Shown here: in pieces, positions 59,468 to 64,000 of the stretch
Numbering within the stretch: the stretch's first letter is position 1
How the letters are laid out: each line of letters begins with the position of its first letter
Assembly: GCA_016744185.1 (NCBI GenBank)
Contig: JADGEY010000003.1
Coordinates: 169 to 64,168, forward strand
DNA: 64,000 bases
Source: Emcibacteraceae bacterium
GTDB taxonomy: Bacteria > Pseudomonadota > Alphaproteobacteria > Sphingomonadales > Emcibacteraceae
Reading direction: 5' to 3'
Translations under genes and position numbers: made by a program
The notes under the pieces: generated by a model
Databases searched by the model: none
Told to the model about the DNA's origin: nothing
Seen by the model: the letters and a program-made list of their open reading frames with translations, nothing else

Positions 59468-59566
59468 TTCTTTAGGTGTAAATTTAACGCTGTACCAAAG
59501 GAGAGCTTCGGGCTATTTTTAAAAGAATGTGAAGGGCATTTTAATAACAGTGATCTTTCGAGTTAA
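59468..59566 (+). pseudogene. relic of the C-terminal end of an IS1595-family transposase
   Basis: Frame reads FFRCKFNAVPKESFGLFLKECEGHFNNSDLSS-stop. This matches the conserved IS1595/ISXO2-like tail (K..L..fnGvpke.f.l.LKEcE.RfNnr). In-frame stops lie immediately upstream and no intact transposase ORF is present. Confidence 0.6.
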
Positions 59567-59603: not shown

Positions 59604-60806
59604 TTAACACCCCTCACGCAATAATAATTTTGCTGTTTCTATATTGTAAATATAATTTCCAATAGTGCCATCTACAATTTTATTTATGACCTCATCTATA
59701 ATAAATACGGGCGCTAGAAACCATTCTTGGGGAGAGACAGGGCTGCCAAAGCGGTCGTTAATTTGAATTTCTAACTTGGCATTTGAAAATACTTTATGGA
59801 GCATTTTTTCAATCTTCACTCTATTGATATTGGCGAGTTTATAGGTTGCAATAATTTCAACATCGGCGAGTAAATATGTTGCGTCATTCCTCGCATTGGC
59901 AATACGTCTTTTAACGTCCCCCCCTGTTACGCCAATTTTATGAAGAATTTCACGGTGTTTTTTAACGGTAGGGTGGTCTGACATGCTTCTAAGGACATAG
60001 ATTGTGCCGCTCGGTAAATCATCACTTTCAGCCCTGCCTGAAAAAAGCGGTCCAGAATTAGGGTCGCTGATTAATCTGCTGGTTTCATCTTTATACATGG
60101 CGCGGATAAGCGATCTAAGAAGGATATTACTTTGCGTGCCATTGGAATAAATCACCTGTAACCGTGCATCAGAATCACCGTTTGGGGCTTTAATAGCTTC
60201 TCCTAATTCAGCAATATAAGCCGTCTGCCCACCGACAATAATGAACTGATGTTTCTTGATATCTGTTTTGGCAAAGCCTGCATCTTTTCTGAAAAATATA
60301 GTGTCCCGCACGGCGGTATCAAGCTCATTTTGGACAGCCGTGAAAAGCGGTTTGAATTTTTCAAAATCTTCGCATTTTATGCGGCTGGCAATTTCTTCTG
60401 CGGCTCTTACTTCTGCGCGGGTACGAACATGTTTTAGGACGGTAACATCACCGTCTTTTGCCTCTACCCCTAATTGTGCGAGCAATTCATCGTCAGCAAT
60501 GGCAGAATCTATTTCTTCATGGTTTGCGGGTGATCCTTCTAAAAGATTCTGATGATCCATTTCGCAAATTAATTCATGGCATTCGGGCTGCTTTTTAATC
60601 TGGTCTAATCGGACGGCATAAATTCTCTCAAATATATTTTTATCTTCACCATAAGAGGGCAGGCGAGCATTATCAGTGACAAAGCTCTGAATTTCTTCAA
60701 AACCTGCAATGATGCGTTCTTCTTTTGCTGTGTATTTTTTCTTTTTTTCTTTTTTCTCTTCTACGCCCAGCGCAGTAAGAAGTTCAAGATCGCTCATATC
60801 AGTCAT
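59604..60806 (-). CDS. T5orf172 (MUG113) / GIY-YIG-like nuclease-domain protein with unassigned N-terminal region of about 270 aa
   Basis: C-terminal blocks GTIYVLRS, HKIGVTGGDVKRRI, IEKMLHKVF and QEWF. Start set at ATG 60804-60806, which overlaps the helicase stop within AATGACTGA. The track start at 60845 lies inside the helicase gene. Confidence 0.65.
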   Translation of the reverse strand: MTDMSDLELLTALGVEEKKEKKKKYTAKEERIIAGFEEIQSFVTDNARLPSYGEDKNIFERIYAVRLDQIKKQPECHELICEMDHQNLLEGSPANHEEIDSAIADDELLAQLGVEAKDGDVTVLKHVRTRAEVRAAEEIASRIKCEDFEKFKPLFTAVQNELDTAVRDTIFFRKDAGFAKTDIKKHQFIIVGGQTAYIAELGEAIKAPNGDSDARLQVIYSNGTQSNILLRSLIRAMYKDETSRLISDPNSGPLFSGRAESDDLPSGTIYVLRSMSDHPTVKKHREILHKIGVTGGDVKRRIANARNDATYLLADVEIIATYKLANINRVKIEKMLHKVFSNAKLEIQINDRFGSPVSPQEWFLAPVFIIDEVINKIVDGTIGNYIYNIETAKLLLREGC

Positions 60807-62853
60807 TTTGAGCGTCCTGCGCATTTTGTTGAAGGAAAGCAACACCCTCAGCCATGCGCTGTTCCCACGGGTCAGGGGAATTTATTTCAGGCAGCCGCCC
60901 CCGTTCTTGTTTGAATTTCAATGCACGCAGGGCAAGCTCACGGGCTTCATCATGGGTGAGTTTGGCTTTTTTAGCAGAAATAACCGCTGCAATTTGTTTA
61001 AGGCTTTCCTCTGTCATGGTTTTAGAGAGGATTGAATAGGCTTCACCAAAGGGATTAATACTATCAATTAAATCAATTTCCAAGTCACGGACATCCACCG
61101 CAAATTTACGAACTCCGTCAATAAGGGCAGTACTGCCTCCCTGCTCTATTTCATTGTCACTATTTGCAATATTCTTTGCCTGCTGAGTAAGGTTTAAGGC
61201 AGCAACAGCATGTTGGCGAACGGCTTCTTGATCCGCATCATCTAGATCAGGGTATTTTTCTTTGATAATTTTACCCATGCGCACTTGGGTCAGCTCTTGC
61301 GGCACCATCTCATCATCAAAAAGCCCCCGTTCGAGCGATGTTTTATCTTGAACAAAGGCGGTGATTACCTCATTTAAATCCTGCTTGCAAATCCGCTGTG
61401 CTTCGGCTGATTTGGGATCGGTTAGCCCTTTAATTTCAATTTGAAATTCGCCTGTATTTTTATTAAATCCCACATTTGACTTATGAGGATCATAGCCGTC
61501 TTCGCCGTAATCAAAACCATCTATAGGGGTATTTTGATTTGATTTTGAGATAAAATTAAAACGGGGCGCTAATACTTGTTCCATTAATAAACTGGCAGCA
61601 ATGGCTTTTAGCGTATCATTGACAGCGTCCGTGACCAGATCTTCCGCTGCATCGGGCTCTGCAATTAGATTGGTGAATCTTGCATGGGTTTTACCCTCCG
61701 CATCACGGGTTGAACGACCAATAATCTGAATGATTTCTGTTAAACTAGACCGATAGCCAACCGTTAAGGCATGTTCACACCAAATCCAGTCAAAGCCTTC
61801 TTTTGCCATGCCAAGGGCGATGATAATATCAACATGATCACGGTTAGATTTCATTTCGGGCATTTTTAGAGCATTTTGAACTTTCGATCGTTGTTTTTCA
61901 TCTGTATCATCAACTAAATCGGCAATTTTAATAATTTTCCCGCCTGATGTTTTTATACGGTGGAAACCTGTTTCTTTCTCTACGCCGAGCCATTCGCCTA
62001 ATTCATGAATGATATGTTCTACTTCTTTATATTTGTCCTTTGTGCTTTCACGGGACATGACGCTTGGAATATGAATGATTGTTTTTTCATGAGGGTTTAA
62101 AACTTCCAAAATACTATCAGCGTAAGAATCAGGATAGAAATAATAACCAATATCTAGTTTTTTAAGATGCTCATAACCGTTAAGCTGTTCATAATAAGTG
62201 TAAGTGACGGATTCAAATCTTGCTTCATCTTCTGGCATCATCACCGCCTGTGCGTCCCCTCGAAAATAAGACCCCGTCATGGCGGTAACATGGGTTTTAT
62301 CCCGTGCGATCAGTTCAGCAAGCTGTGCGCCAAGTTTATTATTGGGGTTCGCGCTCACATGGTGAAATTCATCAATTGCAATCAGGCAGCCATCAAAAAC
62401 CTCAACGCCAAATTTTGCGGCGGCATTACGAAATGTCGCATGAGGGCAAATAAGGATCGTATCGTCGCTCTGTAAAAAGCTATGAACCGCATTTGCCTTG
62501 CTGCCATCTTCCCCAGGGGCATTGCAGAGATTCCATTTAGGGTTCACCTTCCAGTCCCAATAAAACCCAAATTGAGTGAGCGGCTCATCATTAAAGCTAG
62601 AGCCAATAGATTTTTCAGGCACCGTAATAATCGCCTTTTTAATCCCTTGGTTATGAATTTTATCAAGCGCAATAAACATCAAAGCCCGACTTTTACCAGA
62701 GGCAGGCGGTGATTTAATCAGCAAATATTGCTCGCCCCGCTTTTCAAAAGCCCTCTCCTGCATCACCCGCATGCCAAGCTCATTAGAACGGGTAGAGCTG
62801 CCATTTGTGGCATAATTCATGGAGACGCTTGGCACTGATTTAATTTTAGTCAT
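60799..62853 (-). CDS. SF2 (ResIII/DExH-type) helicase
   Basis: Motif I SPPASGKS, motif II IAIDEFHH, motif III-like MTGSYF, motif VI QIIGRSTRD. Start moved to ATG 62851-62853 (MTKIKSV); the track start 62898 would run into the repeat element. Alternative ATG at 62820. Confidence 0.8.
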   Translation of the reverse strand: MTKIKSVPSVSMNYATNGSSTRSNELGMRVMQERAFEKRGEQYLLIKSPPASGKSRALMFIALDKIHNQGIKKAIITVPEKSIGSSFNDEPLTQFGFYWDWKVNPKWNLCNAPGEDGSKANAVHSFLQSDDTILICPHATFRNAAAKFGVEVFDGCLIAIDEFHHVSANPNNKLGAQLAELIARDKTHVTAMTGSYFRGDAQAVMMPEDEARFESVTYTYYEQLNGYEHLKKLDIGYYFYPDSYADSILEVLNPHEKTIIHIPSVMSRESTKDKYKEVEHIIHELGEWLGVEKETGFHRIKTSGGKIIKIADLVDDTDEKQRSKVQNALKMPEMKSNRDHVDIIIALGMAKEGFDWIWCEHALTVGYRSSLTEIIQIIGRSTRDAEGKTHARFTNLIAEPDAAEDLVTDAVNDTLKAIAASLLMEQVLAPRFNFISKSNQNTPIDGFDYGEDGYDPHKSNVGFNKNTGEFQIEIKGLTDPKSAEAQRICKQDLNEVITAFVQDKTSLERGLFDDEMVPQELTQVRMGKIIKEKYPDLDDADQEAVRQHAVAALNLTQQAKNIANSDNEIEQGGSTALIDGVRKFAVDVRDLEIDLIDSINPFGEAYSILSKTMTEESLKQIAAVISAKKAKLTHDEARELALRALKFKQERGRLPEINSPDPWEQRMAEGVAFLQQNAQDAQND

Positions 62854-62875
62854 GTTACTAGCCTTATTGGTTTTA

Positions 62876-62971
62876 TTTGTGGAGCGTGAAAACGCCACTA
62901 ATCATTTTGTGGAGCGTGAAACGCAAAATACGCTCCACAAACTATTTTATGGAGTTTCCACGCTCCACAAA
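62876..62971. repeat. dyad-symmetric element with four copies of TTTGTGGAGCGT (two direct, two inverted)
   Basis: Copies at 62876-62887 and 62906-62917 (+ orientation) and at 62930-62941 and 62960-62971 (reverse complement). Spacing is 30 bp within each pair, and the positions are exactly mirror-symmetric about 62923/62924. Confidence 0.9.
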
Positions 62972-62980
62972 ATAAACATG

Positions 62981-64000
62981 CTATCTACCATCAGCTATAT
63001 TAACAAGCTGGGGAAAATATAATACTGCTGACCGACTTCCGCTTGCGGATTGTAAGTCCTTGAGGATACCCACTTCTTTTAATTGTCTTAGTAATCCAGG
63101 GGTTGTTTTTATATGAATATCATGTTTTTCATTTAGTTTCTTAACAAGATCGGAGGCTTTAAAAATAGGCTTATCAAAAATCGCATCAAGCAAATAAACA
63201 GCATATTGTGAGTGGGTTGTTTCTTGAATTTTGATTTTGGTTTCTTCATAAAGAGCCATAATTGATTTAACCCTTGCGCTATTGTCCTTTGCTTGCATAG
63301 TAACCGCTTTTAGGAAAAATATAATCCAGCCCGTCCAATCCCCGTCTTGAGAGATGGATTTCAATCTTTCATAATATTCTTCACGGTGCGCTTCTAAATA
63401 TTCACTCAAATAAAACATCGGCTGCGACAAAGTCTTTTTTTGAAAAAGGAAAAGCGGAATAAGAAGCCGCCCAATGCGCCCATTGCCATCTTTAAAAGGG
63501 TGAAGAAGTTCAAATTGAGCATGAACAATCGCCATCTGTAATAGAAAATCTGAATCGTCATAACAGGTGTATTTTTCCCATTTCTCTAAAAATTCAGTTA
63601 AAATTAAGGGCGAGGGGGGAACAAATGTAGCTTCTTCAATCTTACAGCCTTCTTTTCCAATCCAATTTTGATCAAGCCGAAAGGCACCGGGGGTTTTATC
63701 TTGCCCCCGTACGCTATTTAATAATATTTTATGCAGTTCACAGATAAACCCTAACCGTATCGGATATTCGTCTAAATATTCACGTGATATGAGTAAAGCC
63801 ATGCGGTAATTCAAAATCTCCTGAATATCTTTTTCTTTTTCAGGCTCTTTGATAATGCCCGCTTCATGTTCTAACACTTCATCAACAGTCGCCTGCGTGC
63901 CTTCAATTTTAGAAGATAAGACAGCTTCCTGCGTTGTTAAGGGCGATAACATAACATCAGGGTTCGTAATCCCTTGAAGCAAACCATCATAGCGTGCGAG
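62981..64000 (-). CDS. Fic family protein (class II, AMPylase-type), N-terminus beyond the window end
   Basis: Fic motif HPFKDGNGRIGR (63467-63502). N-terminal inhibitory-helix motif SSKIEG matches (S/T)xxxE(G/N) at 63899-63916. C-terminal winged-helix-like tail. The frame stays open to position 64000. Confidence 0.85.
   Translation of the reverse strand, partial: LARYDGLLQGITNPDVMLSPLTTQEAVLSSKIEGTQATVDEVLEHEAGIIKEPEKEKDIQEILNYRMALLISREYLDEYPIRLGFICELHKILLNSVRGQDKTPGAFRLDQNWIGKEGCKIEEATFVPPSPLILTEFLEKWEKYTCYDDSDFLLQMAIVHAQFELLHPFKDGNGRIGRLLIPLFLFQKKTLSQPMFYLSEYLEAHREEYYERLKSISQDGDWTGWIIFFLKAVTMQAKDNSARVKSIMALYEETKIKIQETTHSQYAVYLLDAIFDKPIFKASDLVKKLNEKHDIHIKTTPGLLRQLKEVGILKDLQSASGSRSAVLYFPQLVNIADGR

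Follow-up and report, generated by a model that had tools for sequence, protein, structure and literature searches.

The helicase gene and the T5orf172 gene that lie side by side on the minus strand of the window (here, the whole stretch of 64,000 nucleotides that was analysed) very probably encode the YeeB-like helicase and the YeeC-like GIY-YIG/T5orf172 nuclease subunits of an MmeI-like YeeA(DnmA)-YeeB-YeeC restriction–modification (R-M) system, whose operon, judged from sequence, runs here in the order MTase-TRD, SoFic, helicase, nuclease, with the methyltransferase (MTase) gene seen in sister contigs. The original prediction had taken the pair for a self-standing, unassigned module outside R-M, and this has to be given up: an MmeI-family MTase-TRD gene is linked to the pair in 26 of 26 informative loci, and a match to an R-M accessory component, the kind of finding that the prediction itself had named as telling against it, is provided by the YeeA/YeeB/YeeC trio. 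The features concerned are as follows.

59480..59566, plus strand: IS1595-family transposase relic, C-terminal end, just 3′ of the nuclease gene (tblastn)
59604..60806, minus strand: YeeC-like predicted nuclease subunit with C-terminal T5orf172/GIY-YIG domain, 400 aa
60799..60806, minus strand: 8-nt overlap ATGACTGA between the helicase TGA (60799-60801) and the nuclease ATG (60806-60804)
60799..62853, minus strand: YeeB-like SF2 helicase/translocase, 684 aa counted from the ATG, placed by ORF and motifs
61702-61728, minus strand: helicase motif VI, QIIGRSTRD
62359-62373, minus strand: helicase motif II, DEFHH
62689-62709, minus strand: helicase Walker A, PPASGKS
62854..62980, minus strand: Fic-helicase intergenic region, nested inverted repeats that would form one long hairpin
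62981..64000, minus strand: SoFic-type Fic (AMPylase) gene, 3′ part, 339 of 368 codons and the stop lying in the window
63990..64000, minus strand: marker for the off-window MTase-TRD gene (YeeA/DnmA-like, ~925 aa), placed from sister contigs

The SF2 helicase of about 684 aa with three motifs, as predicted, is borne out: the ORF is present, PPASGKS (aa 49-55), DEFHH (aa 161-165) and QIIGRSTRD (aa 376-384) are intact, and Pfam returns DEAD (4e-5), ResIII (1e-4) and Helicase_C (2e-3), with no nuclease domain found in the protein by the same search. A C-terminal helical extension of ~260 aa is kept family-wide. The homologs of the helicase number more than 8000, with 73-86% identity across Alpha- and Gammaproteobacteria, and the window copy keeps every invariant column of the alignment. 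The AF2 model of the helicase (pLDDT 58) is too poor for use. When the helicase and the T5orf172 protein were used as queries, the PDB sequence search gave no relative of either, the NCBIfam search gave no family, and the only PHROGs match for the pair was a generic helicase.

The partner of about 400 aa carries the T5orf172/MUG113 domain at its C-terminus as claimed (T5orf172 3e-12, MUG113 2e-12; aa 267-377, positions 59676-60008), and the domain calls of the original prediction hold. Of the GIY-YIG-type residues, G267, I269, Y270, K290-I-G-V-T294, H337 and E361 do not vary among 43 homologs, and the window copy has them all; R301 is near-invariant (at least 90%). The region of aa 1-165 is helical and contains two invariant D-x2-LL-x2-LG motifs (aa 6-14 and 105-113), followed by a small beta-barrel at aa ~169-246. 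In the AF2 model (pLDDT 73), the C-terminal domain resembles viral T5orf172 folds; the N-terminal part has no significant match among PDB folds, and aa ~185-246 show a weak SH3/KOW-like resemblance in the fold search. The N-terminal 262 aa retrieved 1204 cluster representatives; among the 150 representatives listed, the full-length ones (~385-450 aa) have this region N-terminally, and the remaining ones are mostly gene-fragment-like. A 'GRLP' helical motif seemingly shared by the helicase C-terminus and the nuclease N-terminus was considered and rejected as not significant (hhalign E 0.019, probability 2.4%). The overlap of the two genes had been noted in the original prediction and is confirmed at 8 nt; an equal overlap, or a spacing of 0-1 nt, recurs in the homologous loci L002, L004, L036, L095 and L098, and the translational coupling of the original prediction is supported.

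With mean column identities of 85% for the helicase and 71% for the nuclease, the two subunits appear to be under strong purifying selection, and the ATPase and GIY-YIG motifs of the pair are all intact. This bears on the possibility that the locus is a decaying relic, in which restriction has been lost, only the MTase (for epigenetic regulation) and/or SoFic is still selected, and the helicase and nuclease are on their way out. Such decay would agree with the B. subtilis dnmA-yeeB-yeeC genes, which do not restrict plasmid uptake, give no phage protection and can lose dnmA without a growth defect; with the IS1595 relic that abuts the 3′ end; and with the window copies themselves, which depart from conserved columns more often than any other copy (15 times with a median of 6.5, and 31 times with a median of 13) and stand 3-5 points farther from the outgroups than their sisters do. 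However, both ORFs are of full length, all family-invariant residues and the 8-nt coupling are kept, among the matching genes of the three sister contigs, which are only 0.2-0.4% different over this stretch, no frameshifted copy was noted, and the added divergence is slight and may stem from the window's isolated branch or from AT-rich host drift, so that decay is quite improbable as the explanation. The null phenotypes in B. subtilis, the placing of the MTase gene from sister contigs and not from the window's own record, the polymorphism of contig L001 described below and the slightly greater divergence of the window copies were nevertheless counted against the R-M reading.

No MmeI-like gene was found by tblastn in the 64 kb window, and to this extent the earlier statement that no methyltransferase is adjacent stands; beyond the edge it fails, since an MTase gene abuts the Fic start in three contigs of the same population (L095, L096 and L097) that are 99.6-99.8% identical to the window. 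In these contigs, an MmeI-family MTase-TRD gene lies directly upstream of Fic, giving the order MmeI-like MTase, Fic, helicase, T5orf172. Transferred to the window, the MTase gene would run from ~2.9 kb to 87 bp past position 64000; it escaped the first reading because the window ends within SoFic, whose first 29 codons (87 bp) fall outside. Gene 1 of L095 (859 aa or more) and a Pontibacter MmeI-like protein are 63% identical over residues 68-912, and the stop codon of the L095 gene runs into the ATG of Fic (TAATG). L098, the closest genome, repeats the four-gene order on an integrase-flanked island, and its MTase is a full 928-aa copy with the domains MmeI_N/hel/Mtase/TRD/C. The MmeI-like partner matches all MmeI Pfam domains, and in PADLOC it matches REase_MTase_IIG at E 3e-278; its alignment with MmeI (5HR4; E 2e-141) covers nothing before about residue 100, and the ~95 residues at its N-terminus show no conserved ExK. 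Three features described for YeeA(DnmA)-YeeB-YeeC are found here as well: an MTase-TRD without PD-ExK motif in the operon (L095-L097 and L098), a DEAD-like SF2 helicase downstream of it, and a GIY-YIG/T5orf172 third gene coupled to the helicase. An apparent frameshift in the L096 MTase, which might have been read as phase variation, proved to be a 10-N scaffold gap.

An orphan pair without MTase was also considered, initially on the grounds that the window holds no MmeI-like gene and that 55 metagenomic Fic relatives are never found beside this helicase; it was rejected when the exact Fic protein led to L095-L097 and L098, all with the MTase. The same evidence weighs on the original proposal of a stand-alone helicase and T5orf172 module, a new system of Hachiman or Gabija type. 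The intact, coupled ORFs, the 64-kb window devoid of an MTase and the lack of a PADLOC model for either protein speak for such a module, but with the MTase gene 87 bp past the edge in the 99.6-99.8% identical contigs, the MmeI-like gene missing from none of the 26 informative loci, and the only MTase-less copies seen being IS-disrupted fragments in A. baumannii Tn2009-type elements, it is very improbable.

That count covers the other genomes with enough DNA upstream of the helicase: in all 26, the helicase and T5orf172 genes adjoin and follow an MmeI-like gene on one strand. The same order occurs in L036 and in Acetobacter and Niallia plasmids, and the three families are obligately linked across phyla. 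Each subunit forms more than 8000 clusters at 90% identity and is unusually conserved across phyla; in the Niallia (Bacillaceae) plasmid, the trio has 35/45/29% identity (MTase/helicase/nuclease), and the A. baumannii Tn2009/Tn6206 genes to which PMC3691203 gives the names YeeB/YeeC match at 44-53% (helicase) and 35% (nuclease). The settings of the trio include integrase-flanked islands as well as plasmids that are mobilizable or conjugative; the accessory, mobile context seen in the original prediction is supported. That the trio is mainly an addiction or homing cassette that furthers its own horizontal transfer, with a homing-type GIY-YIG nuclease, and not host defence, is scarcely credible: the extraordinarily high cross-phylum identity, the huge cluster numbers, these mobile settings and the frequency of T5orf172 domains in viral and mobile-element proteins would fit it, but no homolog was found in 50,697 phage records, the linkage of a site-specific MTase-TRD to an ATPase motor is the R-M pattern and not that of homing, and there is genetic evidence for phage resistance in Vibrio.

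In the literature, the trio already has a place among the MmeI homologs, as the YeeA/YeeB/YeeC group (PMC2731913; PMC7261158; PMC9973331). Morgan et al. 2009 (PMC2731913) described a group of MmeI homologs 'invariably located next to' a DEAD helicase and a GIY-YIG protein, and proposed a subunit model for the YeeA/YeeB/YeeC group. The synteny of the trio is conserved according to PMC9973331, which also reports C-terminal stretches in the Vibrio proteins that are missing from B. subtilis YeeB and YeeC. V. crassostreae lost its resistance to one group of phages when yeeAB was inactivated (Piel et al., bioRxiv 10.1101/2021.05.05.442762). The literature searches turned up neither a biochemical or structural study of YeeB/YeeC nor a newer name for the system. 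The earlier remark that the split architecture belongs to no named system is right in that PADLOC gives no Hachiman, Gabija, Nhi or Hna match, and wrong in that the trio has been published.

The predicted neighbours of the pair were both verified. The Fic protein, of which P0241 is an exact 368-aa match, has the Pfam domains Fic_N, Fic and SoFic-like_C and matches the PADLOC SoFic model PDLC03963 over residues 1-365 of 368 (E 3.9e-113); its gene sits between MTase and helicase. The IS1595 relic peptide has 64-68% identity to annotated IS1595 transposase C-termini (tblastn, E 3e-4). It has been reported that E. coli SoFic has a small downstream antitoxin, AS1 (PMC12249575); here, a 128-bp hairpin region lies 3′ of SoFic. 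In it, TTGTGGAGCGT occurs four times (62877-87 and 62907-17 on the plus strand, 62930-40 and 62960-70 on the minus strand), the repeat matches number 5 against 0.56 expected, and the RNA folding energy of the hairpin is -58 kcal/mol (z = -10.7). L098 has a palindrome with an equal core at the equal position, TTTATGGAGCGT...ACGCTCCATAAA, in which the changes are symmetrical. The window has no match to an Rfam family and no tRNA, and the promoter and terminator scan stayed at background level.

The gene between MTase and helicase is SoFic here and in L098; elsewhere, the place is taken by a PLD-like nuclease, by BrnT/BrnA or by unknown genes. The population itself is polymorphic at this position, as one of its contigs, L001, has another gene upstream of the helicase in the place of SoFic. 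Most likely, SoFic acts on its own in abortive infection and rides as cargo in a slot of the operon whose content varies. It is also imaginable, though unlikely, that the MTase-helicase gap is a dedicated, recombination-prone cargo slot, perhaps marked by the hairpin, in which second-line defence or toxin genes are swapped, and that the SoFic AMPylase is wired to the restriction complex, for example by being triggered when R-M is inhibited. What is new here is modest: the SoFic gene nested in the operon, the cargo slot of changing content that separates MTase from helicase, and the conserved large hairpin before the helicase.

A mechanism can be sketched after Morgan 2009 and on the pattern of type I, type III and type ISP enzymes. 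In it, the MmeI-like subunit would read an asymmetric site of 6-7 bp through its own TRD and protect the host DNA by m6A on one strand. At an unmodified site, its altered N-terminal domain may recruit or activate the SF2 motor, which would translocate dsDNA with ATP, and the GIY-YIG subunit would cut. A pair deprived of the MTase-TRD subunit should be untargeted and harmless. The defence logic of a translocase paired with a nuclease, put forward in the original prediction, is supported.

The reassignment removes a false 'novel defence system' lead and shows that a window edge is able to hide the defining gene of an operon. Since PADLOC has no models for the helicase and the nuclease, all that it shows of the system is a single 'type IIG' methyltransferase. 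In addition, the well-conserved alphaproteobacterial copy with its nested SoFic is a reasonable starting point for studying, for the first time, the mechanism of a restriction enzyme that would be GIY-YIG-based, ATP-dependent and MmeI-directed, and can be used to ask whether R-M operons hold exchangeable second-line defence cargo.

Compared with known systems, the view that the locus is not canonical type I or type III R-M proves correct, but the placing of the pair outside R-M does not. Genes of HsdS/HsdR type were not seen in the annotated trio loci, and the PADLOC type I MTase models match the MmeI-like protein weakly (E ~4e-5). The features of type III (Mod/Res) are not found either: the MTase is of MmeI type with its own TRD, the helicase has no nuclease domain, and the nuclease is separate. 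Hachiman, Gabija, Nhi and Hna models do not match the pair in PADLOC v2.0.0, where its best matches are PbeA (2e-6, partial, helicase C-lobe) and PDC-S57 (2e-3). PglZ, BrxC and DUF1998 genes of BREX/DISARM are absent from the neighbourhoods examined, and the PglX and DrmMI models match the MTase marginally in comparison with REase_MTase_IIG. With the SoFic single-gene defence system, the Fic protein shares the full-length model match and the three Fic domains; that system stands alone, whereas SoFic is embedded here in an R-M operon.

With type ISP (LlaGI/LlaBIII) and type III (EcoP15I) enzymes, the putative complex would share the logic of a site-specific adenine MTase, an SF2 dsDNA translocase and a nuclease, together with asymmetric sites and, probably, hemimethylation. 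However, type ISP is one polypeptide with an Mrr nuclease, and here there are three separate subunits; type III combines a beta-class Mod dimer with a Res subunit that has a fused PD-ExK domain, and here the nuclease is GIY-YIG and the MTase of MmeI type, the homology of the helicase to Res being at the generic SF2 level only (ResIII E 1e-4). MmeI itself (type IIL, type IIG; PDB 5HR4) has homologous MTase, TRD, helical spacer and C-terminal domains, and single-strand m6A protection is expected in common. In MmeI, an N-terminal PD-ExK domain of the enzyme itself makes the cut, without need of ATP, whereas this region is replaced here and cleavage would presumably be carried out by the separate ATP-dependent motor and GIY-YIG nuclease.

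The V. crassostreae yeeAB locus, likened by annotation, has the same YeeA/YeeB-type methylase and helicase and, alone among the members, a genetic anti-phage phenotype; a SoFic insertion such as the one here is not reported there. Finally, with YeeA-YeeB-YeeC the locus shares the same three families in the same order, the MTase without PD-ExK region, and the same tight, horizontally mobile operon in defence-island contexts. It differs from the Bacillaceae versions by large divergence, as in the Niallia trio, from B. subtilis YeeB/YeeC by window proteins of full family length, and from the group in general by the SoFic gene and the large hairpin between MTase and helicase.

The pair of genes under study is read from the minus strand of the window, and is followed by the remnant of a transposase:

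62853 to 60799, minus strand: SF2 helicase ORF, 684 aa (ORF reading and Pfam)
60806 to 59604, minus strand: T5orf172 nuclease ORF, 400 aa (ORF reading and Pfam)
59480 to 59566, plus strand: IS1595-family transposase relic (last ~28 codons), between the nuclease gene and DUF1287

The octamer ATGACTGA is common to the helicase stop and the nuclease start, that is, the two genes overlap by 8 nt. The Pfam matches of the helicase are weak but coherent for SF2 (DEAD 4e-5, ResIII 1e-4, Helicase_C 2e-3), and the C-terminal T5orf172/MUG113 domain of the nuclease occupies aa 267-377 (E ~1e-12). The gene upstream of the helicase encodes a Fic protein; downstream, the nuclease gene is followed by the IS1595 relic, whose peptide is 64-68% identical to the C-termini of annotated IS1595 transposases, then by the DUF1287 gene and the core metXW block. 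Since ORFs, Pfam domains, cited motifs and flanking genes are all there, the original prediction was correct as a description of the window, and its accessory context at the edge of the metXW block was borne out by sequence matches.

Among 43 aligned nuclease homologs, G267, I269, Y270, K290-IGVT-294, H337 and E361 are invariant and R301 is near-invariant, and in the alignment of 34 helicase homologs the Walker A, DEFHH and QIIGRxTRD motifs are invariant; the window copies keep all of them. Mean column identity is 85% for the helicase and 71% for the nuclease, and both are evidently under strong purifying selection. The window copies are the most deviant of the members sampled (15 deviations at conserved columns where the median is 6.5, and 31 where it is 13) and are more distant from outgroups, by 3-5 points, than the sister copies, as a decaying relic would be; such a relic is possible but weakly supported, for the ORFs, invariant residues and gene coupling are all intact.

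A PDB sequence search gave no relative of either protein. The N-terminal 262 residues of the nuclease have 1204 cluster representatives; in the best 150 of these, full-length matches (~385-450 aa) bear the module N-terminally and most others resemble gene fragments, so on sequence grounds it is a family-specific module. Two invariant D-x2-LL-x2-LG(V/I) motifs (aa 6-14 and 105-113; window 60465-60791) flank a helical hairpin, and the predicted structure contains a small beta-barrel. The motif region has no structural or sequence match to any solved protein; speculatively, the module could have a docking role, with the two motifs perhaps acting as docking peptides.

Homolog searches returned at least 8000 cluster representatives (90%-identity clusters) for each subunit. 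Among the matches listed, from Alphaproteobacteria, Gammaproteobacteria, Bacteroidota and Nitrospinae, identity is 60-73% for the nuclease and 73-86% for the helicase, and annotation goes no further than the generic 'GIY-YIG nuclease family protein' and 'DEAD/DEAH box helicase'. By this measure both families are very large and unusually tight, more strongly conserved than is usual for a mobile defence module. In Pontibacter and Kiloniella, the first contexts inspected, the pair is directly preceded, on the same strand, by a gene for a 918-aa MmeI-family protein. With one genome scanned per species, 31 loci were obtained, 26 with enough upstream DNA, and 26/26 of these informative loci read MmeI-like gene, helicase, T5orf172 gene. 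Co-occurrence of the three genes is thus obligate in these loci, and the pair does not stand alone.

The trio is also found on plasmids of Acetobacter and of Niallia (Bacillaceae), the latter at 35/45/29% identity, and no homolog of the pair occurs in 50,697 phage records. In A. baumannii Tn2009/Tn6206, IS-disrupted helicase/nuclease fragments are annotated YeeB/YeeC; on plasmid p2014BJAB1 (L094, 5414-9890) the fragments are split by ISAba1, are without the MTase and are carried with blaOXA-23, and these Tn2009/Tn6206-type fragments are the genes called YeeB/YeeC in the resistance literature. In the closest metagenomic relative (L036, 7860-11453), two co-directional genes follow the nuclease, the first of 719 aa with weak VRR-NUC and HSDR_N-like matches near aa 543-624 and the second of 476 aa with no matches; that lineage may have them as further accessory components.

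No MmeI-like gene lies within the 64-kb window, which had been read as 'no methyltransferase, not R-M'; that reading is wrong. An orphan remnant without MTase was first suspected, because none of 55 metagenomic Fic relatives adjoins such a helicase; this was overturned via the exact 368-aa Fic protein, which led to three contigs of sister samples from the same study (L095-L097); over the stretch that reaches from the window end to the nuclease gene inclusive, they match the window at 99.6-99.8% identity. In L095 an ORF of at least 859 aa precedes Fic, its stop overlapping the Fic ATG as TAATG, and it shares 63% identity with the Pontibacter MmeI-like protein over residues 68-912. The first 87 bp of the Fic gene fall beyond the window, so the methyltransferase is outside it; the source contig runs 2.9 kb further, roughly the room needed, and on these matches the gene simply lies beyond the window end. 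The closest genome (L098, 2.86-Mb contig) has MmeI-like gene (928 aa), Fic, helicase and T5orf172 in this order, adjoining integrase genes (Fic 81%, helicase 84% and T5orf172 73% identical to the window). A stand-alone helicase-nuclease system is therefore essentially excluded by the MTase upstream of Fic in L095-L097 and L098. The operon consists of MmeI-like MTase, Fic, helicase and nuclease, tightly coupled by 1-nt and 8-nt overlaps. In PADLOC the MTase scores as REase_MTase_IIG (E 3e-278) and Fic as SoFic (E 3.9e-113), and helicase and nuclease have no model, so standard tools would list a lone 'type IIG' enzyme and SoFic, and two of the three restriction subunits would go unnoticed.

The architecture, earlier left unassigned, matches a group already described. 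Morgan et al. 2009 distinguished two groups of MmeI homologs. One comprises the true type IIL enzymes; the other has no PD-ExK motif, departs from them over the first ~100 residues and is 'invariably located next to' YeeB, a helicase of the DEAD family, and YeeC, a GIY-YIG protein; it was proposed that the MmeI-like subunit provides specificity and methylation and that YeeB/YeeC cleave (PMC2731913). The MmeI-like neighbour aligns to MmeI (5HR4, E 2e-141) only from ~residue 100 on, with all other MmeI Pfam domains present, and in six such proteins no conserved ExK is seen within the first ~95 residues. YeeA of B. subtilis, also named DnmA, is an m6A methyltransferase that targets GACGAG; deletion of dnmA, yeeB or yeeC left growth, transformation and phage phenotype unchanged, and the authors therefore called the system a relic (PMC7261158, PMC9973331). 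In Vibrio crassostreae, inactivation of yeeAB abolished resistance to one phage group (10.1101/2021.05.05.442762). Wide horizontal spread is compatible with a purely selfish or homing role, but the MTase-TRD-motor architecture and this Vibrio phenotype are not. In the literature searched, neither YeeB nor YeeC has been the subject of a biochemical or structural study.

SoFic is known as an AMPylating toxin of abortive infection (PMC12249575); its simplest reading here is as a passenger. Genes lie between MTase and helicase in 5/26 genome loci, in L036, in L098 and in the window's own population:

L012:7493-7927, L020:6343-7939, L030:6788-7942, L031:7524-7957 (other trio loci), L036:3731-4621, L098:6701-7810: slot coordinates
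Inserted gene: SoFic
Inserted gene: 296-aa unknown protein
Inserted gene: ~340-370-aa protein, weak PLD-nuclease-like matches (ZacB 4e-6, PbeA 2e-5, SauUSI N-terminus 0.04)
Inserted gene: BrnT toxin with partner
Inserted gene: DUF1016_N fragment

L001, a contig of the same population, is 99.55% identical to the window through helicase, nuclease and DUF1287 and diverges at about 62877, ~24 nt upstream of the helicase ATG (L001:1-165 against window ~62877-62990). There, SoFic and hairpin are replaced by the 3′ end of an unrelated ORF (...EAKKTKGK*) with its stop 1 nt before the helicase ATG, which reflects either a cassette that differs between strains or a branching of the assembly at the outer-repeat edge. 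In the Fic-helicase spacer (62854-62980, about 128 bp), TTGTGGAGCGT occurs four times, twice direct and twice inverted (5 matches, 0.56 expected), forming a nested palindrome that folds as a single long hairpin (-58 kcal/mol, z = -10.7). A palindrome sharing this core occupies the corresponding place in L098 (7842-7895), with symmetrical changes in its two arms (G>A opposite C>T). The hairpin could be an operator, an RNA processing/attenuation element or a recombination scar. Inserted genes, L001 and hairpin suggest that the MTase-helicase junction is an exchangeable cargo slot, which remains a side observation. On Acetobacter pasteurianus plasmid pAPA12-030 (L092:1078-2172), another Fic gene, 30% identical to the window's, lies directly upstream of the trio, a second, independent Fic association with this system.

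The window locus is thus a YeeA-YeeB-YeeC-type variant with a nested SoFic, of a system never characterised biochemically among the literature searched. As read from the motifs, the MTase-TRD is without its own nuclease motif, and the ATPase motor and GIY-YIG site are intact; the predicted defence logic of translocase plus nuclease was right. The MmeI-like subunit would read an asymmetric site and methylate one strand; where the DNA is unmodified, the altered N-terminal domain of this subunit would engage the SF2 translocase, and ATP-driven translocation would bring the GIY-YIG nuclease to cut. The proposed scheme is like the logic of type ISP and type III systems, but is here distributed over three separate subunits.
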